From Bdellovibrionales bacterium (lineage in GTDB: Bacteria > Bdellovibrionota > Bdellovibrionia > Bdellovibrionales > JAUICD01): a stretch of DNA of 64,000 nt. The translations under genes and the position numbers were made by a program. Numbering within the stretch: the stretch's first letter is position 1; each line of letters begins with the position of its first letter. The stretch is from positions 96,001 to 160,000 of the forward strand of contig OZ241865.1 of NCBI GenBank assembly GCA_965203275.1, in the 5' to 3' direction. A model generated the notes under the pieces. The model did not search any database, was not told the DNA's origin, and saw only the letters and a program-made list of their open reading frames with translations. Below are positions 7,741-49,972 of this stretch, piece by piece.

Positions 7741-9265
7741 TTGGACCTTCTATTGTCTAATTTCGTCTTTTTTGCACTAAAAGTGGTCTGACCTCTAGTC
7801 ACTTTCTGGTTGCCAGCCGAAGGCTATTCGCCTTCTTATTCTTTTTCACTAAAAATAAACCAGCCTCTGGCTGTTTTTGAGCTGGATCTTCAATTTATTT
7901 CTTAAATTTCAAAATCATTGCCCTGAGACCAGACTCTTTCCCATTTATATCATTAGTTTTTATCACTTTTTACTCATTTGGCTTTGAAATTCTGTGCTTG
8001 CAAATAAAAAATCTGGATGCGAATGGTAATGGGCATTGCTCTGACAGCTTACGCTGTCTAAAAAGAGCAATGCCTCAAAAATCTGTTTATTTTTAGTAAG
8101 GAGGAAGCCTTCATTTTTTACTACATGTTAAGGAAAAAGTTCCTTCTATCAAAATTCCCTCAAAATTTCCCTTCCCTGAATATTCTAATCTAATTTCGTA
8201 TATCCATCAGGTCAAGCTCATTTCAGAGAACTGAAAGGTCAATTTTGAGGAGATCGGCTAGAAAATCACTGCATAACATCTTAATATGTACTCTTTGTTG
8301 TATATATTATTCTCAATCCTTTCTTTGAACCTTCTGTCTTTGGACCTTCTATTGTCTAACTTCGTTGATCCTCATTTGGACCTTCTATTGTCTAATTTCG
8401 TTGATCCTCATCTACCCGTACGAACCTCTTTCAGAGATACGTGAACTGTTTCCCTCAAAATTTCCCTTCCCTGAATATTCTAATCTAATTTCGTATATCC
8501 ATCAGGTCAAGCTCATTTCAGAGAACTGAAAGGTCAATTTTGAGGAGATCGGCTAGAAAATCACTGCATAACATCTTAATATGTACTCTTTGTTGTATAT
8601 ATTATTCTCAATCCTTTCTTTGAACCTTCTGTCTTTGGACCTTCTATTGTCTAACTTCGTTGATCCTCATCTACCCGTACGTATTTGATTTTCACTCAAA
8701 ATAAATCATGCCTCTGTTTCACTAAAAGTAAACCAGCCTCTGGCTGTTTTTGGGCAATCAGCCCGACGGCTCACGCCGTCGATCAAAGGCTGATTGCCTC
8801 AAAAATCCGTTTACTTTGAGTAGGGCGGATCTCCTTGCTTCTGACACCATGTTAGGGAAAAAGTGCTTTTATTACCTTAAGAGCAAGTGGTTTACGAATG
8901 AGGAACTTTTTCCTTAACATGTAGTCAAGAGACGAAGAGATCCTTTCTACTAAAAGTGGTCAGGCTTTCTAGGTGATGACCATTTTATCGATGGCGAAAG
9001 CCATTGCGGTCATTGTCCATTACCATTCGCATCTAGATTTTTTATTTGCAAGCACAGAATTTCAAAGCCAAATAAGATGAAGGTTTGTACAAGCTAATGA
9101 TATGAATGGGAAAGAGTCTGGTCTCAGGGCAATGATTTTGAAATTTAAGAAATAAATTGAAGATCCAGCTCAAAAGTGGCCAGAGGCCAGTTCATTTTGA
9201 GTGAAATGTTAAGGAAAAAGTTCAGTTTTAGTACCTGATGCCGGGTTGCCAGATCCCAGATCCCT
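7741..9265. repeat. Cluster of the structured palindromic element family plus accessory modules
   Basis: Cores at 7845-8140, 8716-8863 and 8900-9207; 221-bp direct duplication 8155-8375/8450-8670; 152-bp inverted inserts 7880-8031/9018-9170; GGGATC module 9236-9264. Confidence 0.9.
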
Positions 9266-9336: not shown

Positions 9337-9735
9337 TTATTTTTTCAGCTTGAGAATGTCGTCTTTGGACAAACCTGTCATTGTAGAGATCAATGAAATA
9401 TTGAGATTTTCTTTCAACATATTTTGTGCTACTTTCTCCATTCCATCCTTACGACCTTTTTCCATCCCTTTTTCCATTCCTTTTTCCATCCCTTCCTTAC
9501 GACCTTTTTCCATCCCTTTTTCCATCCCTTTCTCCACTCCTTCCTTACGACCTTTTTCCATCCCTTTTTCCATTCCTTTTTCCATCCCTTCCTTACGACC
9601 TTTCTTCATCCCTTTCTCATAAGCACCCTCTTCTCTGGCTACTTGATCTTTTCTGTCTCTCTCTTTCACCATTGCAAGTTCCTGTAATGTCTCATCTTTT
9701 GATAATATCCATAAATGCTTTGCTGCTTCTGCCAT
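9337..9735 (-). CDS. Putative intragenic RpnS (in-frame internal start, 132 aa)
   Basis: AAGGGAGG-TATT-ATG in frame at Met214; same site in all three rpn copies. Confidence 0.65.
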   Translation of the reverse strand: MAEAAKHLWILSKDETLQELAMVKERDRKDQVAREEGAYEKGMKKGRKEGMEKGMEKGMEKGRKEGVEKGMEKGMEKGRKEGMEKGMEKGMEKGRKDGMEKVAQNMLKENLNISLISTMTGLSKDDILKLKK

Positions 9736-10374
9736 AATACCTCCCTTGTTTTGAAAATTGGTATACTCCTTTAAATCCATATTACCAGAGTTCTTTAAAA
9801 GATAACACCAATCTGCCTTTTTGTCAAATAATTCATGCAAACTTGACTGAAACTTGCCTAATTCTACAATGACAAAACACAATCCACGAGACATAATCAC
9901 TTCTGGTGGTTTTGTCCGACGGATATTGCAGATATGATAGTAATCCTTTATCCCTGCAAATTCTTTTAAATTAGCTGTTGTAAAAACAAGTGAATACACA
10001 GGAAGTAATTTATTAAAATCTTCGCCTTTCTTTATCTGACCAGAATAAGCCCTAGAAGCATAAACTAATATCCGATCTGTAAAAAACTTTTGACTTGTTG
10101 TTTGAACTTCTACATGGACAATATCTGTATCTTGAAGAACGCCTCTGATCCGTCTTCTTAATTTTACACGCAAATCTAAAGTAAAGGATTTGTATTCGTC
10201 TGGAACCTTATCGGGAAGAAGCTCTGTGTTTAATAATGAAACACCCTCTATCACAGAACCCTTAGGCAAAGGCACAAAATTCTCTACCAGTGAAATTAAA
10301 AGGTCTTCTCTCTTTTCAAAAAAAGCCTTGAAAATAGCATCTATTGTTAATTGTAATAAAACTCTCTCTGTCAT
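9337..10374 (-). CDS. Rpn/YhgA-like PD-(D/E)XK nuclease (recombination-promoting nuclease family)
   Basis: D..FKAFF, LDLRV, VEVQ, DR.L.Y.SR.YS.Q, W.Y.LK, EKG(M/R) repeats, C-terminal TGLS helix-turn-helix. Confidence 0.9.
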   Translation of the reverse strand: MTERVLLQLTIDAIFKAFFEKREDLLISLVENFVPLPKGSVIEGVSLLNTELLPDKVPDEYKSFTLDLRVKLRRRIRGVLQDTDIVHVEVQTTSQKFFTDRILVYASRAYSGQIKKGEDFNKLLPVYSLVFTTANLKEFAGIKDYYHICNIRRTKPPEVIMSRGLCFVIVELGKFQSSLHELFDKKADWCYLLKNSGNMDLKEYTNFQNKGGIMAEAAKHLWILSKDETLQELAMVKERDRKDQVAREEGAYEKGMKKGRKEGMEKGMEKGMEKGRKEGVEKGMEKGMEKGRKEGMEKGMEKGMEKGRKDGMEKVAQNMLKENLNISLISTMTGLSKDDILKLKK

Positions 10375-21154: not shown

Positions 21155-21653
21155 GAAAACATCTGCTAAGGTGGCTATTATTATGGGAAGTTCTTCGGAT
21201 TTCCCTGTCATGAAGGAAGCAGGTGTAGCCCTTAAGAAACTTCAATGTAAGTATGCATTTTATGTTGTATCTGCTCATCGTACGCCAGAGTGGATGTTTG
21301 AATTTGCTAAGACAGCTCGTGTCAATGGTTTTCAGGTCATTATTGCAGGGGCAGGTAAGGCAGCTCATTTGCCAGGAATGGTTGCCTCTTTGACGGACTT
21401 GCCTGTGATTGGTGTCCCTGTCCCTGTGGGGGAGATGCAAGGTCAGGATGCTTTATTTTCTATCGTACAAATGCCCAAGGGAGTGCCTGTAGCCACTGTG
21501 GGCATAGGTAATAGTTATAATGCAGGATTATTAGCAGCTAAGATATTGGCATCAAGTTGCCTACAAGAAGATAGTGATTTATTCAAAAGATTAAATGCTT
21601 TAGCACAACAATCTCAAAAAGCAACCCTTAAAAAATCTCTCAAGGTGTTATAA
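21141..21653 (+). CDS. purE: N5-CAIR mutase
   Basis: [39 protein letters not shown]. Confidence 0.97.
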
Positions 21654-21902
21654 AATTTGGGTTTGATAGTTTTTGGTGGTTTTCTTAGTAGGTTGTAGGT
21701 TTTTTAAAAAAGTGCCTGAGTTTTTATCTTGCTTTTTTTATCAATCTTTTTTTTCATCAATTTTTCAGAAAAGTTAAATACATTTTGAGCATTTGCGATT
21801 GAAAAATACAATATAATAAGATAATTATAACACAACAGCTTTGTTCATAATATTATAAAGATATTTATTGACAAGATATTTTATTTCTACTATAGGTAGG
21901 TT

Positions 21903-22220
21903 ATGGTTATGGAAAAGTATAAACAGAAATACAATCAGTATTGGCTTCAAGTCAATGCTATTGCTAATAAGATAGAAAGCTGTGGGTATGATAGCAATGC
22001 AGCTGTCTGTGGTGTTCAATTCTATCTAAAAAGACAAGGTGATGTTTTTACAAGAATGAGTATAGAGGCAAGGCCATATATCAAAGAGCTGATTGATCTT
22101 GGCAATGAGATGCGAGAGCATCGGATCAATCCAGTGTGGTTTTATGAGGCTTGGAGAGTTGAAAGGTATAAATCACCAAAGCCATCAAAAAGAAATCCTG
22201 TCCCTGTCGTCACAACATAA
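21903..22220 (+). CDS. Hypothetical protein
   Basis: 105-aa ORF preceded by TTGACA (21868) and followed by an AAAGCC-AAG-GGCTTT hairpin. Confidence 0.5.
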   Translation: MVMEKYKQKYNQYWLQVNAIANKIESCGYDSNAAVCGVQFYLKRQGDVFTRMSIEARPYIKELIDLGNEMREHRINPVWFYEAWRVERYKSPKPSKRNPVPVVTT

Positions 22221-22392
22221 TTTGAGTTTACTTTTTGAAAGCCAAGGGCTTTTTATTCTTGTTAAGATCACCTCATCACACAATGTTCTCTTTTTGAGAT
22301 AGAGGCCACTTTATAATTCCGGGCGTATGCTTTGTTTTATCATCACACAACGTTCTCTTTTTTTTAGAGGCTACCCTATAAATTTGATATGT

Positions 22393-22862
22393 GATGGTGA
22401 CCATTTTGCCAACGTGAAGTAAACATCTCTTGTTTCCTTAACATGTAGTTAAGAGATGAGGAGATCCTTCTTACTAAAAGTAAACGGATTTTTGAGGCAA
22501 TCAGCCTTTTATCGACGGCAAGAGCCCAAAGGTGTAAGAAGGAACTTTTTCCTTAACATGGTGTTAAAAAATGAGGAGATCCTCCTCTACTCAAAATGAG
22601 CAGTTTTTTGCGGCATTGCTCTTTTTAGACAGCGTAAGCTGTCAGAGCAATGCCCAAAAACACACCAGAGGTGTGGCTCATTTTGAGTGAAACAACTAAC
22701 TCCTTACTCAAAGTGAACAGGCTTTTGAGACGATGACCATTTTGTCAAAGGCGAAAGCCTTTGCGGTCATCGTCCAAAAGTGACCAGAGGTCAGTTCACT
22801 TTGAGTGAAACAAACTCCTTAACATGGTGTTTATCCGGGATCTGGGATCCCGTATCCCAGAA
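22393..22862 (+). repeat. Structured element cluster upstream of rpn
   Basis: Core ACTCAAAATGAGC 22589-22601 pairs with GCTCATTTTGAGT 22676-22688; second core 22706-22812; GGGATC module 22833-22860. Confidence 0.9.
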
Positions 22863-23009
22863 GGATGATCTTTGTAGAGAAGATCACAGGATAATACATA
22901 TCATTCTTAGAGCAGTTATAAGGCAGTTAAAAGTTATGACAAACAGAATATATTTGACTTAAGTGATTTTTTACTATTAAACTAAGATAATAAAAATGAG
23001 GTATACAAG

Positions 23010-24035
23010 ATGAAAAAACCAAGCAAGAATTTAAGTTTAACAAAAGATCGTAATTTCAAGGCCTTCTTTACAAGGAAGAAAAAGCTTTTGATTTCGATAA
23101 TGGAGAATTTTCTTCCATTGCCAGAGGGTTCTGTAATAGAAGACATTCATATATTAAATACAGAACTTCCATCGGATAAATTCCCGGAGGAGTATAAATT
23201 TTTTGTTTTAGATTTGCGAGTACAATTAAGAAGAAGGATTAATGGCATTCTTCAAAATACAGAGACAGCGAATGTAGAAGTTCAAACAACAGCTCAAAAG
23301 CATTTTACGGATAGGTTACTGATGTATCTATCTCGGCTCTATTCAGGTCAAATTAAGAAAGGGGAGAATGTTGATAAGTTACTTCCCGTGTATTCATTGG
23401 TTTTCACAACTGTAAATTTAAAAGAATTTGAAGGAATAAAGGACTACTATCATGTTTGCAATATTCGTCGGACAGAGCATCCAGAAGTAGTGATGTCTCG
23501 GGGTATGAGTTTTGTGATAGTAGAATTAGATAAATTTCAGTCCCAATTAGGAGAATTATTTGACATAAAAGAGAATTGGTGTTATTTTTTAAAGAGGTCA
23601 GGTCAGATGGACCAAAAGGAATATTTATATTTCAAAGATAAAGGAGGAATCATGGCAGAAGCAGCTGAGCATTTATGGATATTATCAAAAGATGAGACAT
23701 TACAAGAGCTTGATATGGTGAAAGAGAGAGCTAGGAGGGATCAAGTAGACAGAGAAGAATTTGTTCGTGACGAGGGTCGTGAGGAAGGTCTTGAGAAGGG
23801 TTTTAAGAAGGGTCTTGAGAAGGGTATTGAGAAGGGTATTGAGAAGGGTATTGAGAAGGGTCGTGAAGAAGGTATTGATAAGGGTATTAAGAAGGGTCTT
23901 GAGAAAAAACAAAAAGAAATTGCACTTAAACTAATTGAGAGAAATGCAAAATTACAAGATATCTGTGAAATCACTGGCCTATCAGAAGCAGAAATCAAAA
24001 AAATTCGCCAATCGTTTTCACTCAAAGTGAAGTGA
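23010..24035 (+). CDS. Rpn/YhgA-like PD-(D/E)XK nuclease
   Basis: DRNFKAFF, LDLRV, VEVQ, EKGI repeats, TGLS HTH; last codons are supplied by the element end. Confidence 0.9.
   Translation: MKKPSKNLSLTKDRNFKAFFTRKKKLLISIMENFLPLPEGSVIEDIHILNTELPSDKFPEEYKFFVLDLRVQLRRRINGILQNTETANVEVQTTAQKHFTDRLLMYLSRLYSGQIKKGENVDKLLPVYSLVFTTVNLKEFEGIKDYYHVCNIRRTEHPEVVMSRGMSFVIVELDKFQSQLGELFDIKENWCYFLKRSGQMDQKEYLYFKDKGGIMAEAAEHLWILSKDETLQELDMVKERARRDQVDREEFVRDEGREEGLEKGFKKGLEKGIEKGIEKGIEKGREEGIDKGIKKGLEKKQKEIALKLIERNAKLQDICEITGLSEAEIKKIRQSFSLKVK
23652..24035 (+). CDS. Putative intragenic RpnS (127 aa)
   Basis: AAGGAGG-AATC-ATG at 23641-23654, in frame. Confidence 0.65.
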   Translation: MAEAAEHLWILSKDETLQELDMVKERARRDQVDREEFVRDEGREEGLEKGFKKGLEKGIEKGIEKGIEKGREEGIDKGIKKGLEKKQKEIALKLIERNAKLQDICEITGLSEAEIKKIRQSFSLKVK

Positions 24036-24062
24036 CCAGAGGTCAGTTCACTTTGAGTGAAA
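24016..24062. repeat. Two element ends fused into a 16-bp perfect hairpin between convergent genes
   Basis: TTTCACTCAAAGTGAA-15 nt-TTCACTTTGAGTGAAA. Confidence 0.8.
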
Positions 24063-24143
24063 CAACATAGATTTTCTAAAATTCTGCCACAAAAACAAAA
24101 ACCTAGTGGCACAAAATCTCTTTCGACTCATAACCTACTGATT

Positions 24144-24581
24144 TTACTCAACTTTATTTTTGCAGGCTATCAAACTCAGGATTTGATCTAAAGCCCCGGT
24201 AGCAAAGTCAAAACCCATTCGTCTAGTATTAACTTTATTTACGTCGGTAGCTAAAGGGCCGTTATATACACCAGAGGCAGGCCTTGTCGTTACGTTGACG
24301 TTGATTCCTACGGCCCCTCTATCTGCTATATTCCAGCCGGCCGTATAATAGGAAAGTCCCGCTTGGTCATATCCCATTTGTTCAAGATTTGCTGTTGCAT
24401 AATCCCATTCTGTTATAAACGTCATTTGGGCCGCATAAATACTAGTTAGTGTTGTCTTTGCATTTGTTTGAATAGCCCTTCGTTTAAATTGACCATACTG
24501 TGGTACAGCAATCACAGCTAAAATACCAATAATAGCCACAGTGACCATTATCTCAATTAAAGAAAACCCTGATTGTTTCAT
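24144..24581 (-). CDS. Type IV pilin (PilA-like); C-terminus replaced by a repeat, possibly truncated
   Basis: MKQSG/FSLIEIMVTVAIIGILAVIAVPQY class III signal; the last ~12 codons lie in a 79-bp repeat also found at 58156-58234. Confidence 0.85.
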   Translation of the reverse strand: MKQSGFSLIEIMVTVAIIGILAVIAVPQYGQFKRRAIQTNAKTTLTSIYAAQMTFITEWDYATANLEQMGYDQAGLSYYTAGWNIADRGAVGINVNVTTRPASGVYNGPLATDVNKVNTRRMGFDFATGALDQILSLIACKNKVE

Positions 24582-24621
24582 ATTCTGTTTCCTTATCTTG
24601 CACCGGTCGCTTGCAATACCT

Positions 24622-25701
24622 TTACCATCCCCGGTTCACACAGTTAGGTTTATGGCCACAGAGTTGCGGATTTGCCCCGGCCGCTCGCAATACCTTTACT
24701 ACTTCTCTATGGTTGCTTACATAAGCCTTTTCTAAAGCTGTCCTGCCCCAATGTCGAGGACTAGGATGTTGATAATTGACGTTAGCCCCGGCCGCTAGCA
24801 ATAACTTTACAATCTCTACATTGCCCTTACGCAAATCAGTAACATAAAGTAAAGGTGTCATGTAATTAAAGTTTATAATATTAGCGTTGGCTCCGACTGT
24901 TAGCAATAATCTTACAGTCTCTGTATGGCCCCTCCTACTAGCATGCATTAAAGCCGTATTGTCCCTAATGTTTTGATGATTGACGTCAGCCCCGGCTGCT
25001 AGCAATATCTTTACAGATTCATGCATGTCTAAAAAAATCTTTACATAATCATGTCTAAGTCTAAAGACCGCACTGGCATGTAGTAAAAGCGTATTGTGGT
25101 CTTTGTCCATCAGCATATTAACGTCCATACAAGTACTTTTTAAAAATAGCTTTAAAATTTCTGTATTTTTGACAAGGGCCACTATGCTCGAATAATCATC
25201 CCTGTTCATAACCTTGTTAATAGTCGAAAAACTACGAGGGTCTGCTCCGGCCGCTAGCAAATTCTTTACACCCTCTATATCACCATTAATAACAGCCGTC
25301 TTTAATCTCGTAGCACCATAATTAGGCCTGCAAGTGTATGTTGTTGGTCTTAAAACTTGCTGTTGAGCTGGAGTTGGTCCTGGAATCAGAATCAGAGTTG
25401 CATTTGGTTCTGGAATCCGAGCTGGTCGTGGAGTCGGAGTTGGTACTGGAGTCGGAGTTGCTGTTGGTCCTGGAGTCGGAGTTGGAGATGGTCCTGGAGT
25501 TGCTGTTGGTCCTGGAGTCGGAGTTGGAGATGGTCCTGGAACCGGAATCGAAGCTGGCTTTTGTTCTATTTGAGATCTGGACGTCTTACTGTCAAAACGG
25601 CCTTTTGAACAGTTGTTAAAACTGAATACCAAACAAGACACAATAAGCAATGCTAACGATAAATAAGCAAGCTTTTTTTTAGATTTTAGATTTTTAAACA
25701 T
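24622..25701 (-). CDS. FNNC lipoprotein with Pro/Thr linker and ankyrin repeats
   Basis: FSFNNCS lipobox, (PGPSPTPTPGPTAT)x2, LLAAGADVN and TALMHA ankyrin motifs. Confidence 0.85.
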   Translation of the reverse strand: MFKNLKSKKKLAYLSLALLIVSCLVFSFNNCSKGRFDSKTSRSQIEQKPASIPVPGPSPTPTPGPTATPGPSPTPTPGPTATPTPVPTPTPRPARIPEPNATLILIPGPTPAQQQVLRPTTYTCRPNYGATRLKTAVINGDIEGVKNLLAAGADPRSFSTINKVMNRDDYSSIVALVKNTEILKLFLKSTCMDVNMLMDKDHNTLLLHASAVFRLRHDYVKIFLDMHESVKILLAAGADVNHQNIRDNTALMHASRRGHTETVRLLLTVGANANIINFNYMTPLLYVTDLRKGNVEIVKLLLAAGANVNYQHPSPRHWGRTALEKAYVSNHREVVKVLRAAGANPQLCGHKPNCVNRGW

Positions 25702-25763
25702 ATTGTACCTACCTTGATAAATATTGAAAAAAGGGCCATTTTTTAGTGATTCTAAATGACCTT

Positions 25764-26177
25764 AGTGATTTCAAGGACTTAGCACTGTAACTTTTGTATA
25801 AAAGTTACAATTTGAAAGAGCAAAAAACAGGCAAATTTTTGCAAGAAAATTGTTTTGAAAAATCAAACAAATCAAAAGTTATAAAACACAAATGAAAAAT
25901 CATTGTTTATTTTACTGATCTTATGTCTTTAAGATTGGTAAAGTGTTTCAAGATGATACAAAAATTAAAAAAAGTGATTCTTTTTGATACAAAATGTCAC
26001 TTTTTTTGATTTTTTTAACAAAAATATAAAGTTTTATATCATAATAACCGATAAGAATTATGTTAGACGAAAAATTTAGATATTTCTAAAGTTGACCTGC
26101 AAAAAGTCTAACAATTACAAACACTTAATACTGTAACTTTTATACAAAAGTCACAATACTAACTTATTGAAATCACT
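25764..26177. promoter_or_regulatory. 46-bp imperfect inverted repeats (24-bp palindrome plus IHF-like site) flanking a sigma28-like promoter
   Basis: TGTAACTTTT-GTAT-AAAAGTTACA 25786-25809 and its inverse at 26132-26155; TAAAGTTT-N12-ACCGATAA 26027-26054. Confidence 0.5.
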
Positions 26178-26237
26178 GGATTTCTAATTTTCAAATACTT
26201 TTTTCACTATCTTTTAGAAAAAATACAGAGATTACGA

Positions 26238-26810
26238 ACATCTTGTTTCCCTAACATGGTTTTCATCTGGGATCCGGGATCTGGCAATCAGGCAAACCGG
26301 CATCAGAAGGAAAAGGTGTAAGAAAGAGCTTTTTCCCTAACATCGTGTTAAATGAGAAATGGATCCTCATTACTAAAAGTGGTCAGGCTTTCTAGGTGAT
26401 GACCATTTTATCGACGGCGTGAGCCGTCGTGGTCATCGCCAGAAAGTAGCCAGAGGCTAGACCACTTTTAGTGAAACAAACCCTTAACATTGTGTTAAGA
26501 AATGAGGACATCCTCCTTCCTAAAATTGAACAAGCTTTTGAGACAGTTAGCCTTTGATCGACGGCGAGAGCCGTCGGGCTAACTGTCCAAAAGTAGCCAG
26601 AGGCTAGACCACTTTTAGTGAAACAAACCCTTAACATCGTGTTAAGAAATGAGGACATCCTCCTTCCTAAAATTGAACAAGCTTTTGAGACAGTTAGCCT
26701 TTGATCGACGGCGAGAGCCGTCGGGCTAACTGTCCAAAAGTAGCCAGAGGCTAGTTCAATTTTAGGGAAACAGAGGTCAGTTCACTTTGAGTGAAAATGA
26801 CGGCTTGACT
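26238..26810 (+). repeat. Structured element cluster with a 147-bp tandem duplication
   Basis: Units start at 26481 and 26628; GGGATC leader 26264-26306; stacked 3' end at 26771-26797. Confidence 0.9.
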
Positions 26811-26859
26811 TTTGAGATATATGCGGTTATAAAATCAAAAATTCAAATGGAAGGTACAA

Positions 26860-28659
26860 ATGAAGAAATATATTTTTATCCTATTTATTATTTTGTTTAC
26901 CGCTAGTGATTCTCTATGGGCTTGTGCTGAAAGTCTTATGCCACAAAACCAAATGGATGACAAAATACATATACAAAGAGATATACTCAGAGAATTTGGT
27001 CCTCGCTCTCAAGATATATTATCTAAAGCTTCATTAATAGCTTATGCTTCTGGGTCTCAAACAGTGAATGTGAACCACATTATTTTAGCTACTATGACGC
27101 GTGTTGAATCTTTAAATGGAAGAACCAATCGTTTAAATGAGATATATCTCATAGACTACACCCATCATTTTTATAATTTTGCTCTTATTTTAAAAGAATT
27201 AAATATTTTAAAAAGAGTGCAAGAGCTTCTTTTAAGTCAATTAGATGTTCAGACTCGTAACTCCATATCAACTGAAAAGCACAATAATGATTTACTTGTT
27301 CTTCATTTCGGAGATCTCTTTTTTATACCTACACTTCCTTATGATGAGAGTGCCAAAGCCTTATTGGAAAGAACTATTGTTGAGAAAAAAGATGGGATTT
27401 TATATAGGTGGAATCTAGGTAATAAAATTTTTTTCGTTCCTACATTTGACGAGAATTTATTCCTAGTAGCTTCGAAGATGAATACAGTTATTAGAGAAGT
27501 TTTAAATGAGAATGAAGTATTCAAACTTAGTAAAGTTTTATTGAAGGATATTGAGGAAGGCCAGATTGAGATTGTAAAAGAGATGCTAAAGCAGGGTATA
27601 CCTCCTGATATTCAAGATGAAAATGGCAAAGCACCTCTAATGCAAGCAGTTTCTTCTGGTCAGATTGAGATTGCAAAGTTTTTACTAGCGAACGGAGCGG
27701 ATGTCAATCTTCAAGCCAAAGATGGCACTACAGCCTTAATGCAGGCTGTTTCTCAGCACCATACAGAGCTTGTAAAATTATTGCTAGGAGCTGGAGCGGA
27801 CGTCAATCTTCAAGACAATCGTGGCAGAACGGCCTTAATGTTGGCTAATGCTGAAAATACAAAGCTATTGCTAGAAGCTGGGGCCAAAGTCAATCTTCAA
27901 GCCAAAGATGGCACTACAGCCTTAATGATGGCTGCTTTCGATGCTAAGCTTTTAATGCTGTTGCTAAAAAACGGAGCAGATCCAGATATTCAAGACGATC
28001 TTGGTAGAACGGTCTTAATGATTATTAGTCGGCGAGAAGGGCATGAGGGTAATTTAATGCTGTTGCTAACAAAAGAAGGAGCAGATGTCAATATTCAAGA
28101 CAAAGAGGGTATTACGGCTTTACATTTTGCCACTTTGAACAATTTTACTACCTATGTAAATATATTGCTAGCGATCGATGCAGATCCAAATCTTCAAGCC
28201 AAAGATGGCACTACGGCTTTACATTTGGCTTGTAGGTATAGTCGTCCTAAAATTGTAAAGCAATTACTAGATAACGGTGCAGATCCAGACATTCAAGATG
28301 TGGGTGGCAATACGCCCTTAATCTGGGCTAGCCTTTACGGACATCTTAATAGTGTAAAAGCCTTGCTGGAAGCTGGTGCCAACATTCATATCCAAAATCA
28401 TGGTCTCCACCTCACAGCTTTAAGTATTGCTAGGGAAAATGGACATACTAAGATTGTAAATCTCTTAAGGAAGACGGAAATTATACAAAGGATGATTGAT
28501 GAAGGGTATACCGAGAGTGCAAATCTCTTAAAGGATGCCAATTTTACAAGGGATATCGGCGGTGAGATTCCTGAGTTTACAGCACCTGAGATTATAAAGC
28601 TCTTAAGGGATGCCGGTTTTACAGAACAAGCCCAACACGAACATTGGCAAAATCATTAA
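26860..28659 (+). CDS. Secreted multi-ankyrin-repeat protein
   Basis: Signal peptide, about 9 ankyrin repeats (GADVNLQAKDGTTALM); stop TAA lies within the element TAACA hairpin. Confidence 0.9.
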   Translation: MKKYIFILFIILFTASDSLWACAESLMPQNQMDDKIHIQRDILREFGPRSQDILSKASLIAYASGSQTVNVNHIILATMTRVESLNGRTNRLNEIYLIDYTHHFYNFALILKELNILKRVQELLLSQLDVQTRNSISTEKHNNDLLVLHFGDLFFIPTLPYDESAKALLERTIVEKKDGILYRWNLGNKIFFVPTFDENLFLVASKMNTVIREVLNENEVFKLSKVLLKDIEEGQIEIVKEMLKQGIPPDIQDENGKAPLMQAVSSGQIEIAKFLLANGADVNLQAKDGTTALMQAVSQHHTELVKLLLGAGADVNLQDNRGRTALMLANAENTKLLLEAGAKVNLQAKDGTTALMMAAFDAKLLMLLLKNGADPDIQDDLGRTVLMIISRREGHEGNLMLLLTKEGADVNIQDKEGITALHFATLNNFTTYVNILLAIDADPNLQAKDGTTALHLACRYSRPKIVKQLLDNGADPDIQDVGGNTPLIWASLYGHLNSVKALLEAGANIHIQNHGLHLTALSIARENGHTKIVNLLRKTEIIQRMIDEGYTESANLLKDANFTRDIGGEIPEFTAPEIIKLLRDAGFTEQAQHEHWQNH

Positions 28660-29744
28660 CATGATGTTGATCCAGGATCTGGGATCCGGGATCTGGCAAG
28701 CGGGCAACAGATGTAAGAAGGAACCTCCCTAACCCCACCCACCGCCCTTCGATTCTGCTTTCCCATTTTGTTTTTATTTGAGGATGGGGCAGTGTGAGCC
28801 TTCCGAAGTCCTCAATTTTTTTCACTCAAAATGAACTGGCCTCTGGCCACTTTTGGGTAGCCAGCCCGACGGCTCTCGCCGTCGTAAAAGGCTGGCTACC
28901 TCAAAAGCTTGTTCATTTTGAGTAGAGGAGGATCCTTTTATTCCTCTACACCATGTTAGGGAAACAAGATATGCCTCTAAAATGTTTTTGGAGAGCAAGC
29001 TCAATTTGCGGAAGATCTCCAGTCTCCCACTGCCCCATCCTCCTCCCTAATTACTTCTTTTTTGAAAATTACGCAGAATCTAAAAAAAATAAAAAAACAA
29101 AAATACGAATATCTTGTTTCCTTAACATGGTGTTAAAAAATGAGGGGATCCTCCTTCCTAAAATTGAACAAGCTTTTGAGGGCATCAGGCAGAAAAGGCA
29201 TTTTGTTTCCTTAACATGGTGTTAAGAGACAAGAAGATCCTCCCTACTAAAAGTGGTCAGGCTTTCTAGGTGATGACCATTTTATCGATGTGAAGTAAAC
29301 ATCTTGTTTCCTTAACATGGTGTTAAGAGACAAAGAGATCCTTCCTACTAAAAGTAAACGGACTTTTGAGATAGCCAGCCTTTGATCGACGGCGGTAGCC
29401 GTCGGGCTGGCTATCCAAAAGTGACCAGAGGTCAGTTTACTTTTAGTGAAACAAATTCTTGATTTGGTGGATGTACGAAGTTAAAAATAAAAGATTCAAA
29501 GAAGGGAAATTGATAGAAGGAACTTTTTCCTTAACATCCTGTCAAAAAACGAAGGGATCCTCCCCTACTAAAAGTAAACGAACTTTTGAGACAATGACCA
29601 TTTTGTCAAAGGCGAAAGCCTTTGCGGTCATTGTCCAAAAGTGACCAGAGGTCAGTTTACTTTTAGTGAGCCAATGCACGTATCTCTGAAAGAGGTGCGT
29701 ACGGGTAGACGAAAACACATGAAGTTAGACAATAAAAGGTCCAA
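28657..29744. repeat. Structured element cluster with G4-motif composite and portable RBS module
   Basis: Minus core 28820-28965; plus cores 29305-29452 and 29520-29670; accessory IR 28750-28810/29020-29085. Confidence 0.9.
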
Positions 29745-30626
29745 ATGATGAAAAAAACAAATGATCAACAAACATCAAATGATCAACAAACATCAAAAGA
29801 TCAGGAATTTCTGATTCCGTCTCCGACTCCCCTGTCTAATAGAAACTTACTTTATAAGCCCTTTGTAACTTTTCTCTATAAAGAGATTAAACGTTTTTGG
29901 CGTGTAAAGGGGCAGACAGTGATAAACCCTTTAGTTCAAAGTTCTCTTTATCTTTTAATTTTTGGTGTGAGTTTAGGTAAAAGCATCACTTTACAAAACG
30001 GCCTAAGTTATATGGAATTTTTAATTCCTGGTCTGGTGATGATGGCAGCTTTAAATAATGCCTTTCTCAATTGTTCTGGTTCAATTGTGACTTCTAAGTT
30101 TCATGGAGATATTCAGGACCTTAAAATTATCCCCTTATCTGATTATTTTATTTTGTTAGCTTTTGCTTTAGGTGGGCTTATTCGAGGTATGGTTGTAGGG
30201 CTATTTACTCTGTTGGCTTGTCAAATATGCTTCTTTTTTATCAATGGTCATTTGCTCTCTATTGCATATCCTTTTTTATTTTTTGCTTTCTTATGTATAG
30301 GTGGTTTATCTTTTGGTTTCCTGGGGGCTTTTACAGCTTTTTGGGCAAAAACCTTTGATCATGTCAATGCCATTAGTGGCTTTGTGGTTTTGCCTCTACT
30401 CTATTTAGGGGGTGTTTTTTACTCTATAGAAACATTACCTGAAACTTTGCAAATCATCTCAAAGATGAACCCTATGCTTTACTTTATTAGTGGTGTACGT
30501 TATGGATTTTCACAACAGAGCGATATAGAATGGATCTATTGTTTAGGGGTTGCTGTGGTGTCTATGTTTGTGTGCATGTATTTGAGTGTCAATCGTTTCC
30601 GTAGCTCCACTTTCCATCGTTGGTGA
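29745..30626 (+). CDS. ABC-2 transporter permease (YadH-like)
   Basis: KEIKRFWR..QT, YMEFLIPGLVMM, P..YLGGVFYSI..LP, NPMLYFISGVRYG. Confidence 0.88.
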   Translation: MMKKTNDQQTSNDQQTSKDQEFLIPSPTPLSNRNLLYKPFVTFLYKEIKRFWRVKGQTVINPLVQSSLYLLIFGVSLGKSITLQNGLSYMEFLIPGLVMMAALNNAFLNCSGSIVTSKFHGDIQDLKIIPLSDYFILLAFALGGLIRGMVVGLFTLLACQICFFFINGHLLSIAYPFLFFAFLCIGGLSFGFLGAFTAFWAKTFDHVNAISGFVVLPLLYLGGVFYSIETLPETLQIISKMNPMLYFISGVRYGFSQQSDIEWIYCLGVAVVSMFVCMYLSVNRFRSSTFHRW

Positions 30627-30865
30627 TCCATCTCTTAAATTCACTCTAGTCAAAAAATAAGAAAATCTCTTTTGAGGAAAAGAAAATATTTTCCATTTAT
30701 TGTCTTTATCTTAAGTCCTCAAATCTTCAAATCCTTAAATCTTCATCTAAAATAAAATATTGTGCTGCGTCATAAAATATTTATGATATAATAAAAACAA
30801 AGCTCAAATAAGCTATAATAATGATAATACTTTCTTCTCAAATTTATCATATCAATAGGTGATCT

Positions 30866-32224
30866 ATGTTAAAAGGCATTTTATTATATATATTTTTTCT
30901 GTGGATCAGCATTTCACATCAAAGTGCTTATGCTAAGCCACAAATTCACTTTGATGTAGAAAGATTAACTTTGAAGAATGGTTTGACAGTTCTCATGCAT
31001 ACAGATCATTCTGTTCCTTTGATCAGTTATCATACATGGTTTCGTGTGGGGTCTGTAGATGAGGAACCAGGCTTTACAGGCATAGCTCATCTCTTTGAAC
31101 ACATGATGTTTAAAGGAGCTAAAAGATATGGCAATAAAGAGTTTGATCAAGTACTCCGTTCTCAAGGAGCTATCAATAATGCTTTTACAAGCAAAGATTT
31201 TACAGGCTATTACATAAACCTACCTAGCTCTGGTTTAGAGTTAGCGATGGATGTAGAATCCGATCGCATGCAATCTGTACAAATCACATCAGCTAATCTT
31301 TTAAGTGAAAAAGAAGTCACAAAAGAAGAGCGACGTTTCCGTGTTGAAAATAGTGTAGCAGGCACTTTATATGAACAGCTTTTTTTAACAGCCTTCCAAC
31401 GTCATCCTTATCGCACTCCTGTTGTAGGTTTCATGGATGATCTCAATAATGTCACTGTTGAAAAATGCAAAGAGTTTTTTAGACAATTTTATGCTCCCAA
31501 CAATGCTGTGATTATCATTGTGGGAGATTTTCAAAAAGATAAAGCTAAAAAATTAATTCAAAAATATTATGGCTCCATTCCTCGTCAGACCATTCATCGT
31601 AGAGCTTACCTAAAAGAACAACCTCAAAAAGCAAAACGTTCTAAAGTTATCTTTAAAGATGTACAGAATGATTCACTTTCAATAGGCTTCCATATTTCAA
31701 AGGCAGGAGATCCTGATTCTTATGCTCTTGATCTACTAGCTGATGCTTTAGCTGGTAAAAAATCAAGTCGATTATACAGAAAATTAATCTATCAATCACA
31801 GCTTGCAAGCAGTGTTGCTGTATATTCCTATACTCCTAAAGACCCTGGTATTTTGCAGATTTCTGTTGCATTAAAACCTAAAGTCAATAGTCAACATGTG
31901 TTACGTATTATTACTGAGGAGTTGAAAAAAATACAAAAAACACCTCTGACTTCAGATGAGTTAGAACAAGCTAAAACCTCTGTTTTATTAGCACATGTAA
32001 ATAGTATGAAGTCTTTCCATGGAAAGGCTCAGGCCCTTGCTCTTAACGAGATCGTTATGGGAGATTATCGATTCTTTTTTGAAGACATACAAAGATACTT
32101 AAATGTTTCATCTCAGCAAATTCAAAAAGTAGCTCAAAAGTACCTTAACCCCTGGCAACAAACTTTAATTCATATTCAACCTCAACAAAACAACGCTCAA
32201 AAAACAACAAGGAAAAGCCAATGA
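30866..32224 (+). CDS. M16 zinc peptidase, catalytic subunit
   Basis: GIAHLFEHMMFKG (HxxEH), NAFT, EERRFR, FY.PNNA. Confidence 0.93.
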   Translation: MLKGILLYIFFLWISISHQSAYAKPQIHFDVERLTLKNGLTVLMHTDHSVPLISYHTWFRVGSVDEEPGFTGIAHLFEHMMFKGAKRYGNKEFDQVLRSQGAINNAFTSKDFTGYYINLPSSGLELAMDVESDRMQSVQITSANLLSEKEVTKEERRFRVENSVAGTLYEQLFLTAFQRHPYRTPVVGFMDDLNNVTVEKCKEFFRQFYAPNNAVIIIVGDFQKDKAKKLIQKYYGSIPRQTIHRRAYLKEQPQKAKRSKVIFKDVQNDSLSIGFHISKAGDPDSYALDLLADALAGKKSSRLYRKLIYQSQLASSVAVYSYTPKDPGILQISVALKPKVNSQHVLRIITEELKKIQKTPLTSDELEQAKTSVLLAHVNSMKSFHGKAQALALNEIVMGDYRFFFEDIQRYLNVSSQQIQKVAQKYLNPWQQTLIHIQPQQNNAQKTTRKSQ

Positions 32225-33600
32225 AAAAATATCTCATAGCAAGTCTTTTTTTCTCTCTGACCTCTTGTGCAAGTCTTTCACCGGTCAACAAGCCATTTGT
32301 TATTCGAGATTATCAAGAAGCAACTTTAACAAATGGTTTAAAAGTGCTACTTGTAAAAGACAATAGTTTGCCTTATATTTCGGCTACTTTGATGATTCAT
32401 TCAGGGAGTGTTAGTGATCCGTCTCCGCATTTTGGACTGACTTCTTTTGTCAGTGGCATGCTCGATAGAGGGACCAAAAAATATTCTACAATGGAAATAG
32501 CAGATGCTTTTGGAAGACTTGGTACAAATCTTTCTATTGCGACTGATAGAGAATATACTTTCATTACAAGTAACACTCTTTCAGATCATCAAGTTACATT
32601 GTTTGATTTGTTAGGTGAGGTGATCAGTCAAGCCACTTTTCCTCAAAAAGAAATTAAGCGTTATAAAAGTGAAGTTTTAGCAGCTTTAAAAACTATGGCA
32701 GATAAACCCTCTTCGTATACTCAGAGAATGTACGATGCTTATTTATATGGAGATCATCCTTATGGACGTTTGACTGTTGGTTCTATTAAAAGTGTAGAGA
32801 TGATAACAAGACCTCAAATCTTAAATCATTATTCAAAAGTCTTTCGTCCAAATAATGCCACTTTAGCTGTTGTAGGTGACTTTAAAGAGAACATTATATC
32901 TCTATTAGAAGACTCTTTCAAAGATTGGAAAGAGCAATCAATAGAACCTATAGCTTTTGCCTCTAAGCCAGTGATGAAAAAGCGTCTTGTACGTTTAGTG
33001 ACCAAAGAAGATTTAAAACAAGCAGAGATACGCATTGGACATATTGGAATTAAACGAGATAATCCTGATTTTTTAAAATTAAGGGTTGCTAATACTATTT
33101 TAGGGAGAGGATTTGTGAGTCGATTGATGGATCATATTAGAGATAACTTAGGCTTAACTTATAGTATTTCAAGTGACTTTGATGCTCGTTTAGATTATGG
33201 TCCTTTCACTATTGCAACTTTTACCAACAATCAAACAGTGGCTAAAACTATTGAAGAAACCTTAACTCTTTTAGAAACTTTTCACAAAGAAGGTGTAACA
33301 AAAGAAGAAGTTTCAGTAGCTAAAAAATATCTTTTAGGGGTTTTTCCGCAGGCCATAGATACACCTGAAAAGCTAGCTTTTAATTTATTACTTTTGAGGC
33401 TATATTCTATCCCTGATAGTTATTTAGAAACTTATTCTTCTAAAATTTCTAAGATCACTGTCAAGGACGTCAATCAAGTGATCAAAAAATACATTGATCC
33501 TTATAACTTAAAGATTTTGGTTTATGCTCCTTCTAAGGTCTATGCTCAGGTACAGTTTGTTGGTGAGACTGAAGTTCATCCTCACACAAATTTCAAATAA
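32221..33600 (+). CDS. M16 peptidase, non-catalytic partner subunit (lipoprotein)
   Basis: LTSC lipobox, no HxxEH, SRLM..IRD..GLTY; overlaps the upstream stop. Confidence 0.88.
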   Translation: MKKYLIASLFFSLTSCASLSPVNKPFVIRDYQEATLTNGLKVLLVKDNSLPYISATLMIHSGSVSDPSPHFGLTSFVSGMLDRGTKKYSTMEIADAFGRLGTNLSIATDREYTFITSNTLSDHQVTLFDLLGEVISQATFPQKEIKRYKSEVLAALKTMADKPSSYTQRMYDAYLYGDHPYGRLTVGSIKSVEMITRPQILNHYSKVFRPNNATLAVVGDFKENIISLLEDSFKDWKEQSIEPIAFASKPVMKKRLVRLVTKEDLKQAEIRIGHIGIKRDNPDFLKLRVANTILGRGFVSRLMDHIRDNLGLTYSISSDFDARLDYGPFTIATFTNNQTVAKTIEETLTLLETFHKEGVTKEEVSVAKKYLLGVFPQAIDTPEKLAFNLLLLRLYSIPDSYLETYSSKISKITVKDVNQVIKKYIDPYNLKILVYAPSKVYAQVQFVGETEVHPHTNFK

Positions 33601-43463: not shown

Positions 43464-44590
43464 CATCCGGGATCTGGGATTTGGGATCTGGGATCCGGCA
43501 TCTGGTCAGAAGGAACTTCCCTAACCCCACCCCCCGCCCTTCGATTCTGCTTTTATATTTGTATGTTTTTTATGAGTGGAATGCGAAGGCAGGCTTCCGA
43601 AGTCCTCATTTTTTTTCACTCAAAATAAATCATACCTCTGGCATGTTTTCTGGCAGTTAGCCCGACGGCTACCGCCGTCGATCAAAGGCTAACTGCCTAG
43701 AAAATCCATTTATTTTGAGTAGAGGAGGATCCTTTTATTCCTCTACACCATGTTAGGGAAACAAGATATGCTTCTAAAACTTTTAGTGAGCCAACACTTC
43801 CAGTCTCCCACTGCCCCATCCTCCACCTAATTATTTTTTGTTTGAGAGTTACGCAGAATCTAAAAGAAAATAAAAAAAACAAAAAAGGAACATCTTGTTT
43901 CCTTAAAATTTCACTCAAAATAAATCATGCCTCTGGCATGTTTTCTGGCAGTTAGCCCGACGGCTACCGCCGTCGATCAAAGGCTAACTACCTAGAAAAT
44001 TCATTTATTTTGAGTAGGGCGGATCTCCTTGCTTCTGACACCATGTTAAGGAAACAAGATATGCTTCTAAAATGTCTTTGGAAAGCAAGCGGATTGCGAT
44101 AAAGGAAATTTTTCCTTAACATCATGTTAAGAAACGAAGAGATCCTTTCTACTAAAAATAAACGGATTTTTGAGGCATTGCTCTTTTAATATAATTTTGA
44201 AAGCATTTTGTTTCCTTAACATGATGTTAAAAGAGGAAAGGATCCTCCTACTAAAAGTGGTCAGGCTTTCTAGGCGATGACCATTTTGCCAATGGGAAAT
44301 AAACATCTTGTTTCCTTAACATCGTGTAAAGAGACAAGAGGATTCTTCCTACTAAAAATAAACGGATTTTTGAGGCAATCAGCCTTTGATCGACGGCGAC
44401 AGCCGTCGGGCTGATTGCCCAAAAACAGCCAGAGGCTGGTTTATTTTTAGTGAGACAAACGCGGTCATTGTCCAAAAGTAGCCAGAGGCTAGTTTACTTT
44501 TAGTGAACCAGAGGTGTGGCTCATTTTGAGTGAAACAGAGGTCAGTTCACTTTGAGTGAACCAGAGGTCAGTTCACTTTGAGTGAAAACG
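43464..44590. repeat. Structured element cluster (G4 composite, head-to-head dimer, nested halves, stacked 3' ends)
   Basis: Minus cores 43612-43762 and 43909-44055; plus core 44310-44455; stacked ends 44463-44588. Confidence 0.9.
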
Positions 44591-45362
44591 ATTGGCGAAT
44601 TTTTTTGATTTCTGCTTCTGATAGGCCAGTGATTTCACAGATATCTTGTAATTTTGCATTTCTCTCAATTAGTTTAAGTGCAATCTCTTTTTGTTTCTTC
44701 TCAATACCTTTCTTAAAACCCTTCTCAATACCTTCTTCACGACCCTTCTCAATACCTTCTTCACGACCCTTCTCAATACCCTTCTCAATACCTTTCTCAA
44801 TACCTTTCTCAATACCTTTCTCAAGACCCTTCTTAAAACCCTTCTCAAGACCTTCCTCACGCCCCTCGTCACGAACAAATTCTTCTCTGTCTACTTGATC
44901 CCTCCTTGCTCTCTCTTTCACCATATCAAGCTCTTGTAATGTCTCATCTTTTGATAATACCCATAAATGCTCAGCTGCTTCTGCCATGATTCCTCCTTTA
45001 TCTTTGAAATATAAATATTCCTTTTGGTCCATCTGACCTGACCTCTTTAAAAAATAACACCAATTCTCTTTTATGTCAATTAATTCTCCTAATTGGGACT
45101 GAAATTTATCTAATTCTACTATCACAAAACTCATACCCCGCGACATCACTACTTCTGGATGCCCTATCCGACGAATATTGCAAACATGGTAATAGTCCTT
45201 TATTCCTTCAAATTCTTTTAAATTTACAGTTGTGAAAACCAATGAATACACGGGAAGTAACTTATCAATATTCTCCCCTTTCCTAATTTGACCTGAATAG
45301 AGCCGAGATAGATACATCAGTAACCTATCCGTAAAATGCTTTTGAGCTGTCGTTTGTTTCAC
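44568..45362 (-). pseudogene. 5'-truncated rpn copy that keeps an intact RpnS frame (44568..44987)
   Basis: Near-identical to 23010..24035 from QTTAQKHF onward; N-terminal ~90 codons, including the LD and E of EVQ, are replaced by an element end; AAGGAGG RBS for RpnS is intact. Confidence 0.85.
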
Positions 45363-46092
45363 TCAAAATGAACTGGCCTCTGGCCACTTTTGGGTAGCCA
45401 GCCCGACGGCTACCGCCGTCGTAAAAGGCTGGCTACCTCAAAAGCTTGTTCATTTTGAGTAGAGGAGGATCCTTTTATTCCTCTACACCATGTTAGGGAA
45501 AATTTCTTTTATTACCTCAAGAGCAAGCGAGTTACAATAAAGGAACTTTTTCCTTAACATCATGTCAAAAAACGAAGATATCCTTCCCTACTAAAAGTGG
45601 TCAGGCTTTCTAGGTTGCCAGCATTTGAGAAGGCGAAAGCCTTCGGCTGGCAACCAGAAAGTGACCAGAGGTCAGACCACTTTTAGTGAAAAAAACTATG
45701 TAAAGTTTACAAAGTACCCTATAACCTTTACAATGTGGGTTGTTTTCGTTTGCAATCTGTTGCAATCTATGCATAATAAGGCAAGAAAGGATTCATTCCG
45801 GGATCCGGGATCCGGCAATCGGGCAAGCCGGCATCAGAAGGAAATCTTTTTCCTTAACATAGTGTTCATTCCGGGATCCGGGATCTGGCAATCCGGGAGC
45901 CGGCATCAGAAGGAAATCTTTTTCCTTAACATGGTGTTAAGAAATGAGGACATCCTCCTTCCTAAAATTGAACAGGCTTTTGAGGCAGTTAGCCTTTGAT
46001 CGACGGCGGTAGCCGTCGGGCTAACTGCCCAAAAGTAGCCAGAGGCTAGTTCAATTTTAGGGAAACAGAGGCTGGTTTATTTTTAGTGAAAC
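45356..46092. repeat. Head-to-head element dimer plus a further core and GGGATCC modules
   Basis: GTTTCACT 45356 to AGTGAAA ~45691; core 45961-46061; heptamer runs 45795-45836 and 45868-45908. Confidence 0.9.
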
Positions 46093-48997: not shown

Positions 48998-49972
48998 TCC
49001 GGATTCGGCATCCGGGATCCGGGATCTGGGATCCGGCAGAACTTTTTCCTTAACATCGTATTAAAAAATGAGGACATTCTCCCTACTAAAAGTAAACGGA
49101 CTTTTGAGGCATTGCTCTTTTTAGACAGCGTGAGCTGTCAGAGCAATGTCCAAAAACACACCAGAGGTTGGTTTACTTTTAGTGAACCAACTCCTTAACA
49201 TGGTGTTAAATGAGAAATGGATCCTCATTACTAAAAGTGGTCAGGCTTTCTAGGTTGCCAGCATTTGAGAAGGCGGTAGCCTTCGGCTGGCAACCAGAAA
49301 GTGACCAGAGGTCAGACCACTTTTAGTGAAACAAACTCCTGTAGCCTGCCTTCGCATCCCACTCATAATATTTATATTTAATATTTATATTTTTTGAAAA
49401 TTACGCAGAATCTAAAAAAGAATAAAAAAAATAAAAAAACGAAACTCTTTTTCCCTAACATCGTGTTAAAAAACGAAGAGATCCTCTCTACTAAAAGTGG
49501 TAAAGCTTTCTAGGTTGCCATTGGTGATGAAGGAATTTTTTCCTTAACATCATGTTAAAAGACGAAGAGATCCTTCCCTACTAAAAGTAAACGGACTTTT
49601 GAGACAATGACCATTTTGCCAATGGCGAAATATCAAAGTGAAATAAACATCTTGTTTCCTTAACATTGTGTTAAGAAATGAGGAGATCCTTCCCTACTAA
49701 AAGTAAACGGACTTTTGAGACAATGACCATTTTGCCAATGGCGAAATATCAAAGTGAAATAAACATCTTGTTTCCTTAACATTGTGTTAAGAAATGAGGA
49801 GATCCTTCCCTACTAAAAGTAAACGGACTTTTGAGACAATGACCATTTTGCCAATGGCGAAAGCCATTGCGGTCATTGTCCAAAAGTAGCCAGAGGCTAG
49901 TTTACTTTTAGTGAACCAGAGGTGTGGCTCATTTTGAGTGAAACAGAGGTCAGACCACTTTTAGTGAAACAA
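48998..49972 (+). repeat. Structured element cluster with a 3x116-bp tandem repeat
   Basis: GATCCTTCCCTACT at 49569, 49685 and 49801; full cores at 49042-49188, 49193-49332 and 49770-49916. Confidence 0.9.

Follow-up and report, generated by a model that had tools for sequence, protein, structure and literature searches.

A branched repeat in the window

The region at 29347-29447 of the analysed DNA, a window of 64,000 nt (positions 96,001 to 160,000 of contig OZ241865.1, forward strand, in which all window positions are counted), was identified as the three-way-junction core of one copy of a repeat of about 150 nt, consisting of an outer stem (P3), a long arm (P4) and a side hairpin (P5). 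The parts of this copy and the other copies referred to in the text are listed in Table 1. The folding z-score of the copy is -11.9 for DNA and -9.4 for RNA, and its two strands fold nearly equally well (-44.3 and -44.0 kcal/mol).

Table 1. Positions of the repeat copy at 29304..29454, of its structural parts and of further copies in the window
Feature	Position	Strand	Evidence and details
Full copy of the ~150-nt repeat	29304..29454	+	Profile match, 148 bits; model columns 3-153
Near-invariant 9-base motif at the 5' side	29310-29318	+	Within feature 29310..29327
Weak hairpin P1	29311-29317 / 29321-29327	+	Loop TGG; mismatches across copies are A-C on the + strand
P3 outer stem, 5' arm, 13 bp	29347..29359	+	Sequence
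T-G pair at the P3 foot	T29346 opposite G29448	+	Fixed in 732/738 copies
Long arm, 5' side	29363..29393	+	P4a 29363-29368, bulged A 29369, P4b 29370-29380, 6-nt bulge 29381-29386, P4c 29387-29393; sequence, folding
GNNA tip loop GGTA (not GNRA)	29394..29397	+	Closing pair C29393-G29398, context GC-GGTA-GC
Long arm, 3' side (P4c', P4b', P4a')	29398..29421	+	Watson-Crick throughout in this copy
Side hairpin P5, 5 bp, loop AGA	29422..29434	+	Chief landing place of new same-strand copies
P3 3' arm (29435-29447) and A-rich 3' end joined to target DNA	29435..29454	+	
Two copies truncated at the 3' side (columns 3-75 and 4-90), lying upstream within this cluster	29114..29290	+	Profile search
Next full copy, loop GAAA, other stem alleles	29522..29673	+	Profile search
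Full copy, inverted, 5' ends back to back	28817..28967	-	Profile search
Copy with GACA loop (44398-44401)	44308..44458	+	Loop census
5'-truncated copy with five-base loop GAATA (7825-7829)	7770..7835	-	Profile search, sequence

The genes of the window include three for Rpn proteins (PDDEXK_2) at 9337-10374, 23010-24035 and 44568-45362, with variable C-terminal repeats of four residues, the last of which is truncated at its 5' side by the repeat copy at 45354-45502. Ankyrin-repeat genes are located at 26860-28659 and 24622-25701; about 128 similar proteins form a cluster genome-wide, an abundance in line with a host-associated life. Contigs of one sponge-metagenome run cover single-copy genes of the window. 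Comparison of positions 21500-33000 with the contigs of four runs gave no usable empty site, because the contigs break at the repeat.

Copy number and distribution of the repeat family

By profile search, a total of 1,441 non-overlapping pieces were identified in the 2.57-Mb host genome (G000), making up 6.3% of its length, with 752 pieces on the plus strand and 689 on the minus strand. The pieces form 429 clusters, 738 of them are full length, and only five lie in called genes. A covariance model of the repeat matched three of 151 genomes of the order: the host genome, a sister genome (G001) and a third genome (G004), in which the repeat was found only on contigs nearer to the host genome than to a repeat-free relative (G003) in 16 of 16 genes. 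As judged from these matches, the repeat family appears to be confined to the genus-level lineage of the host genome. No match was found in Rfam or among the viral contigs, metagenome contigs, plasmids and phages searched, and CRISPR spacers gave nothing beyond a 12-nt chance match. A pattern match in Rhodobacteraceae (L068) was rejected as a chance hit without the fold. No description of the repeat was found in the literature, which was searched mostly at the level of titles and abstract openings.

Within G004, the contigs with the repeat and with the 16 G000-like genes are C1, C4 and C11 (L091-L095), and C6 and C12-C15 are G003-like; this assembly looks chimeric or mis-binned, and its repeat-bearing part would then represent a third member of the host lineage. 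In the sister genome, several copies (L002, L017 and L030) were seen by eye to be fused to sequences resembling tRNAs, among them a tandem unit of tRNA and repeat, and the P5 loop (e.g. at L051, L073 and L077) often carries a nested mini-hairpin insertion of 12-14 nt, sometimes duplicated. Adjacent orthologue pairs of G000 and G003 are syntenic in 9 of 146 cases with a repeat copy between them and in 162 of 475 cases without one, a comparison confounded by operon structure. GC skew is absent in G000 and clear in repeat-free G003.

Base pairing and covariation of the stems

Parsing of 669 of the 738 full copies gave 25,627 Watson-Crick stem pairs (97.7%), together with 258 G-T (1.0%), 135 A-C and 197 other oppositions, which bears out the sequence-only reading of this locus in its claim that stem changes are mostly Watson-Crick rather than G-U. 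All 42 major perfect alleles (at least five copies each) are wholly Watson-Crick, and the commonest imperfect haplotypes reach at most 21 copies. For comparison, G-U accounts for 65 of 814 stem pairs (8.0%) in the 39 tRNAs of the same genome, which serve as an imperfect control since the repeat swaps its alleles as modules. The stems of the sister-genome copies contain 2.2% G-T.

Covariation among 30 aligned copies exceeded that in 500 of 500 shuffles and in every slid control. Modules are less strongly associated the further apart they lie, except that the value is high again for the arm with which a module pairs (AMI 0.56 between the P3 arms versus 0.09 between P3 and the loop), indicating that pairing, and not linkage, keeps the arms together. 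Asymmetric features are also conserved, including the bulged A (641 of 669), the 4-7-nt bulge, the G-A loop and the AGA loop (657 of 669). The recurrence of cores at separate loci was 62 of 195 for perfect cores and 4 of 94 for those with several mismatches; cores with a single mismatch, in classes too small for significance, recurred in 12 of 35 cases with G-T beside the bulge, 6 of 32 with G-T elsewhere and 1 of 13 with A-C. The fold thus matters for spread, and copies with broken stems probably stop spreading. Recurrence counts, here and for the loops below, are confounded by the age of the copies and by common alleles being assembled anew.

Folding energies do not separate DNA from RNA, as 94-96% of the reference pairs were recovered in all four combinations of strand and polymer, and ViennaRNA assigns an identical energy to all 16 GNNA loops.

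The tip loop of the long arm

A total of 1,013 pieces cover the tip of P4, of which 59 were unparsed. Among the four-base loops, 817 of 847 are GNNA, comprising 514 GNRA and 303 GNYA, and 73 of the 76 five-base loops read G-N3-A. The earlier description of the loop as GNNA rather than RNA-type GNRA was thus confirmed on a genome-wide census, as were three of the loops that it had cited, GGTA, GACA and, on the minus strand, GAATA (Table 1). With 36% of the four-base loops being GNYA, the share of GNRA stays below an RNA-like level, as does the level of G-T in the stems when set against G-U in tRNA.

GNYA loops are found on eight stem alleles, in 14 combinations, among 362 distinct cores. Among perfect cores, GNYA recurs at separate loci as often as GNRA (21 of 69 and 35 of 104, respectively; p=0.74; with the confounding named above), which indicates no visible selection on the third loop base.

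Melting temperatures of 69.5-76.5 C are reported for d(GCGNNAGC) variants whatever their third base, and of 39 C for r(GCGAAAGC) (Kimoto and Hirao, PMC13037366). The tips of the host-genome copies match this mini-hairpin motif, with C-G as the closing pair in 99%, G-C as the next pair in 92%, and any third base in the loop. Among triloops, the same paper gives GNA as the only one forming mini-hairpins, which excludes the AGA loop of P5. The known biological cases of such hairpins are priming or promoter signals of phages and plasmids, not repeats. The loops of the sister genome, counted on 88 distinct full copies from 568 kb of G001 with 77 parsed, differ in that 36 of 65 are closed by T-A and 27 by C-G, and 39 are GNRA, 9 GNYA and 9 ANNA. 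The strict GC-GNNA-GC context is therefore a trait of the host lineage and not of the sister genome, and the unusual stability of the d(GC-GNNA-GC) mini-hairpin, pointed out earlier, is not supported as the selected trait of the family. Over the loops of the two genomes, the family-wide rule is better described as a purine...A loop closed by a pyrimidine-purine pair.

The folding strand and its orientation

A helix of RNA is expected to favour G-U broadly over A-C. When mismatches were counted on the strand ending in GAAAC, P4b contained 140 G-T against 30 A-C, an excess located mainly in the two pairs adjoining the bulged A; the other four helices together were near-symmetric (118 G-T against 105 A-C). 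Among single-mismatch haplotypes, P3 leans to G-T (12 against 2), and P4a and P5 are even. The strand signal is concentrated in one helix, P4b; together with the fixed T-G pair at the foot of P3, it supports the view that the core folds on the GAAAC strand. The counts also show that G-T is not broadly welcome in the repeat stems, unlike the expectation for an RNA helix. The bias of P1 is the opposite, with 514 A-C against 46 G-T on the GAAAC strand, and P1 either folds on the opposite strand or is merely a sequence motif. The notion of one preferred strand stands for the core, but not for the whole element.

The suggested orientation bias relative to replication direction was not seen (307 against 286 runs with dnaA-based replichores, and none by scanning of origins, permutation p=0.85), in a weak test, as the host genome is without replichore skew and its genes are also split 793 to 735. 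Association with local skew gave odds of 1.42 at 5 kb and, reversed, of 0.78 at 100 kb, on pieces that are not independent. No bias was found relative to flanking genes (163 against 145). Within clusters, the 5' ends are arranged back to back in 135 cases against 29 with the 3' ends facing each other. An excess of C-to-T changes on the folding strand is weak (25 against 18 at unpaired sites).

Junctions of inserted copies

Comparison of filled with empty paralogous sites gave 53 pairs, of which 27 passed the identity filters, duplicates and both sides of doublets included. In the filtered pairs, the 3' end is located 0-23 nt past the stem and carries a short A-rich tail absent from the target; the 5' end is variable and carries passengers, 0-345 bp of the target are lost, and the overlap is at most 3 nt. 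An insertion in an Rpn gene of the sister genome also replaced target DNA. A duplication of 10-11 bp, first read at an Rpn insertion, was not general among the site pairs and was dropped. The idea of terminal pairing or terminal inverted repeats was likewise given up, as no covariation was seen between the two ends of the element (AMI 0.03).

More than half of the distinct 3' junctions (535 of 978) enter another copy of the repeat. Of 417 self-insertions on the same strand, 218 continue at the hairpin P5 or directly after it (columns 123-139), and of 118 on the opposite strand, 73 fall in the P1 loop. Short homology with the tail may contribute to the landing at P5.

A total of 96 back-to-back inverted pairs were found, with a median spacer of 45 nt. 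In five independent cases, an inverted doublet has taken the place of 139-345 bp of a Transposase_31-type gene, and both ends of these insertions lie 4-15 nt beyond a stem. The two ends of a doublet would thus be processed separately, each on the strand to which it belongs, a mode more easily reconciled with DNA than with a single transcript. The spacers of about 45 nt form a family with a common motif in 67 of the 96 pairs (in the window at 8865-8904, 44058-44108 and 45503-45544); a similar spacer is present on a G004 contig (L091:4780), and the doublet may therefore be old.

Three CRISPR arrays of the host genome (C1:238802-245850, 369340-376815 and 2266100-2268200) end where the 3' end of the repeat joins inside the CRISPR repeat. 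One array lies beside a gene of 1,325 aa, which we take to be Cas12a-like, and another beside genes presumably of type I. Four Rpn paralogues other than those of the window, and likely a fifth, have a repeat copy directly ahead of an internal ribosome-binding site with its ATG, at which the small antitoxin form would be expected to begin (PMC10400941).

Search for a mobilising enzyme

The host genome is 90% complete by markers, and the searches that follow refer to it as assembled. Reverse transcriptase was not found with Pfam and a profile of the relatives' enzymes (best E 0.91), and RT genes are present in the sister genome. A Y1 HUH nuclease (PF01797) was likewise not found, the control matching in 6 of 14; the sister genome has one Y1 gene, IS200 transposase-like, with no repeat copy in its 3.4-kb locus. 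IS110, Rep_trans, relaxase and Ku were not found in the host genome. The search for Y2 gave no match in four genomes, with the control also matching nowhere. Two tyrosine recombinase genes of the host genome show no link to the repeat, and the variable junctions argue against them. One encodes, at 187 aa, a protein common to G000 and G001 and absent from G003, with no repeat copy within about 3.8 kb, and the repeat-free genome G002 has seven tyrosine recombinase matches. The proposal of an HUH nuclease or a recombinase as the partner is thus not supported; in addition, the junctions are imprecise with deletion of target DNA. Subtraction of G003 from G000 left 715 of 1,799 genes, with no clear mobiliser among the part of the candidate list inspected, over 381 kb of G004 and 568 kb of G001.

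Loci disrupted by the repeat are frequent among Rpn genes (7 of 16 and 16 of 29) as compared with IS256 and IS1634 (2 of 19), although the events are not independent; four-helix-bundle genes are disrupted at 14 of 23 loci. RpnA is a non-specific nuclease that leaves primable ends allowing template switching, with no cruciform preference (PMC5350276). An apparent tracking of the repeat by Rpn (PF12784) within the family, 3 of 3 against 0 of 2, collapsed: the Rpn gene of G004 lies on a G003-like contig and its repeat-bearing contigs look mis-binned, G022 has 14 Rpn matches without the repeat, and a Transposase_31 Rpn is present in repeat-free G003. Rpn nucleases as the mobiliser are a lead only.

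At about 23 loci, a 101-aa gene, presumably encoding a four-helix-bundle-like protein, is found beside 7-base tandem repeats (e.g. C1:472364-472669; heptamer arrays also lie near 49010 in the window), making up a second, mobile-looking system.

Discussion

Comparison with known systems

By analogy, the repeat would work most like REP, BIME and REPIN sequences and resembles bcr1 in size and branching, but it departs from the defining features of each. With REP/BIME/REPIN (PMC3333891, PMC3116915) it shares the state of a high-copy, intergenic palindromic repeat with compensatory changes, required unpaired bases, a strand-specific fold and spacer-bearing inverted doublets; the doublet as a unit was found here in the 96 back-to-back pairs and in the five independent doublet insertions. 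The REP-type unit is 30-40 nt long as described in these sources, against 150 nt with a three-way junction here. Where REP has its 5' GTAG, the foot on the folding strand reads CTAC here and overlaps the stem; GTAG occurs only 3' and on the other strand. A TnpA-REP (RAYT) gene flanked by repeats is lacking in the host genome, in which no Y1 was detected, and the insertions delete target DNA and carry non-target tails. The bcr1 repeat of the Bacillus cereus group (PMC3184786) is likewise about 155 bp, dispersed and lineage-restricted, with a branched, compensated fold, but bcr1 is described as transcribed and as having 5-bp direct repeats, whereas no fixed duplication was found here. The mini-hairpin motif is matched by the host-genome tips; in the sister genome, C-G closes only 27 of 65 loops.

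Integron attC sites (PMC5737381) are also folded ssDNA, in which bases protrude from the helix and one of the strands is preferred; the repeat differs in having no cassette array, single crossover point or IntI-linked locus. In the box layout of attC, AAC and GTT face each other, an arrangement present here only in the small P1 hairpin. One-ended transposition of IS91/ISCR and elements derived from IS200/IS605 is marked by one fixed end, a variable, passenger-bearing end and no target duplication. In these respects the repeat is alike, but it has neither a fixed target tetranucleotide nor a precise junction, and Y1 is absent in the host genome as assembled. The terminal inverted repeats and fixed target-site duplication of a MITE mobilised by a DDE enzyme were not found.

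Mode of spread

The repeat likely spreads as folded ssDNA of the GAAAC strand with the aid of an enzyme acting in trans, a reading to which we give a probability of roughly 0.58. The GAAAC strand would be freed and then fold; a structure-specific nuclease would cut it 4-15 nt past the foot of P3; the cut end would be joined at a break in the target DNA; and copying would run back through the element, stopping either at an arbitrary point or where a second, inverted copy ends. The proposal that the functional form is folded ssDNA rather than an ncRNA is favoured in its DNA part by the GNYA loops, the Watson-Crick stems, the failure to find a reverse transcriptase, the landing of new 3' ends in or beside hairpin loops and the doublets inserted with both ends defined; the part naming an HUH nuclease or recombinase is not. 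Speaking against ssDNA are the T-A-closed loops and the 2.2% G-T of the sister genome, the opposite bias of P1, the lack of a replication bias (in a weak test) and G-T at positions 1-2 of P4b, which recurs like perfect cores and is allowed by RNA as well; and motifs of ssDNA and ssRNA are described as hard to tell apart computationally (PMC5737381).

RNA-templated insertion, too, leaves a 3' end that is fixed, a tail rich in A and a 5' end that varies. It is unlikely, but deserves weighing, that a transcript from neighbouring promoters is cut back as far as the P3 foot and then written into DNA breaks by a reverse transcriptase acting in trans, or that the repeat is a structured ncRNA. The observed tails and 5' passengers agree with such a route, as do the majority of GNRA in both genomes (514 of 847 and 39 of 65), the tolerance of G-T beside the bulge, the fixed T-G pair, the RT genes of the sister genome and the transcription of the similar-sized bcr1 (PMC3184786). 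It is countered by the lack of a detectable reverse transcriptase in the host genome, by G-T being eightfold rarer than in tRNA and not above A-C in the four helices together, and by the equal recurrence of GNYA and GNRA; moreover, no orientation bias to flanking genes and no Rfam match were found, promoter-like sites occur at chance level (3 against 1.8), and the far end of a doublet would lie on the strand where a transcript would not fold in the preferred way. The near-equal folding of both strands and the symmetry of G-T and A-C in P4a and P5 agree instead with a mutational process, in which template switching in hairpins or cruciforms perfects the pairing and copies spread passively as break patches with no strand recognition; imprecise junctions with deletions and the abundance of Rpn genes, with the primable, switch-permitting ends made by RpnA (PMC5350276), also fit. 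Such a process would, however, be expected to correct the bulged A, the 4-7-nt bulge, the G-A loop and the AGA loop, all of which are kept; just one end is fixed, the orientation is back to back, and RpnA is described without a preference for cruciforms in the same source, making this origin quite improbable.

A site for a tyrosine recombinase like attC, or for an HUH enzyme like REP, whose enzyme has since been lost or lies outside the assembly, appears highly improbable: there is no fixed crossover, with tails ranging over 0-23 nt and as much as 345 bp deleted, neither a gene-cassette arrangement nor an orientation to genes was detected, GTAG is absent 5' of the stem foot, Y1 was not found in G000 and its locus in G001 is without the repeat, and G002 combines seven tyrosine recombinase matches with absence of the repeat. 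These outweigh the extrahelical bases and preferred strand that recall attC (PMC5737381), the likeness of the inverted doublets to BIME/REPIN, and the 187-aa recombinase shared by G000 and G001 but not G003.

Beyond spread as folded ssDNA of the GAAAC strand, we tentatively consider, as a possibility well short of even odds, that the repeat is mobile DNA of a new class, a branched ssDNA with a three-way junction, selected for DNA-specific geometry (sheared purine-A tip, strict Watson-Crick helices, bulged A). The nuclease that cuts it and joins it at hairpin loops would then belong to none of the HUH, DDE, IS110, tyrosine recombinase and RT classes and might be a PD-(D/E)XK enzyme of the Rpn type from the host, and the host chromosome would have been scrambled by the repeat.

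Significance

A natural ssDNA structure more elaborate than a hairpin is called rare in PMC5737381. With about 740 full copies and 42 fully compensated stem alleles in one genome, the repeat amounts to a natural mutagenesis experiment of unusual depth on a fold of this kind, and the GNYA loops and the per-strand counts of G-T against A-C provide concrete rules for separating DNA from RNA motifs. If it is true that an unknown nuclease joins the folded strand at hairpin loops, this would be a new transposition chemistry. In the host genome, the repeat coincides with the loss of both GC skew and synteny.
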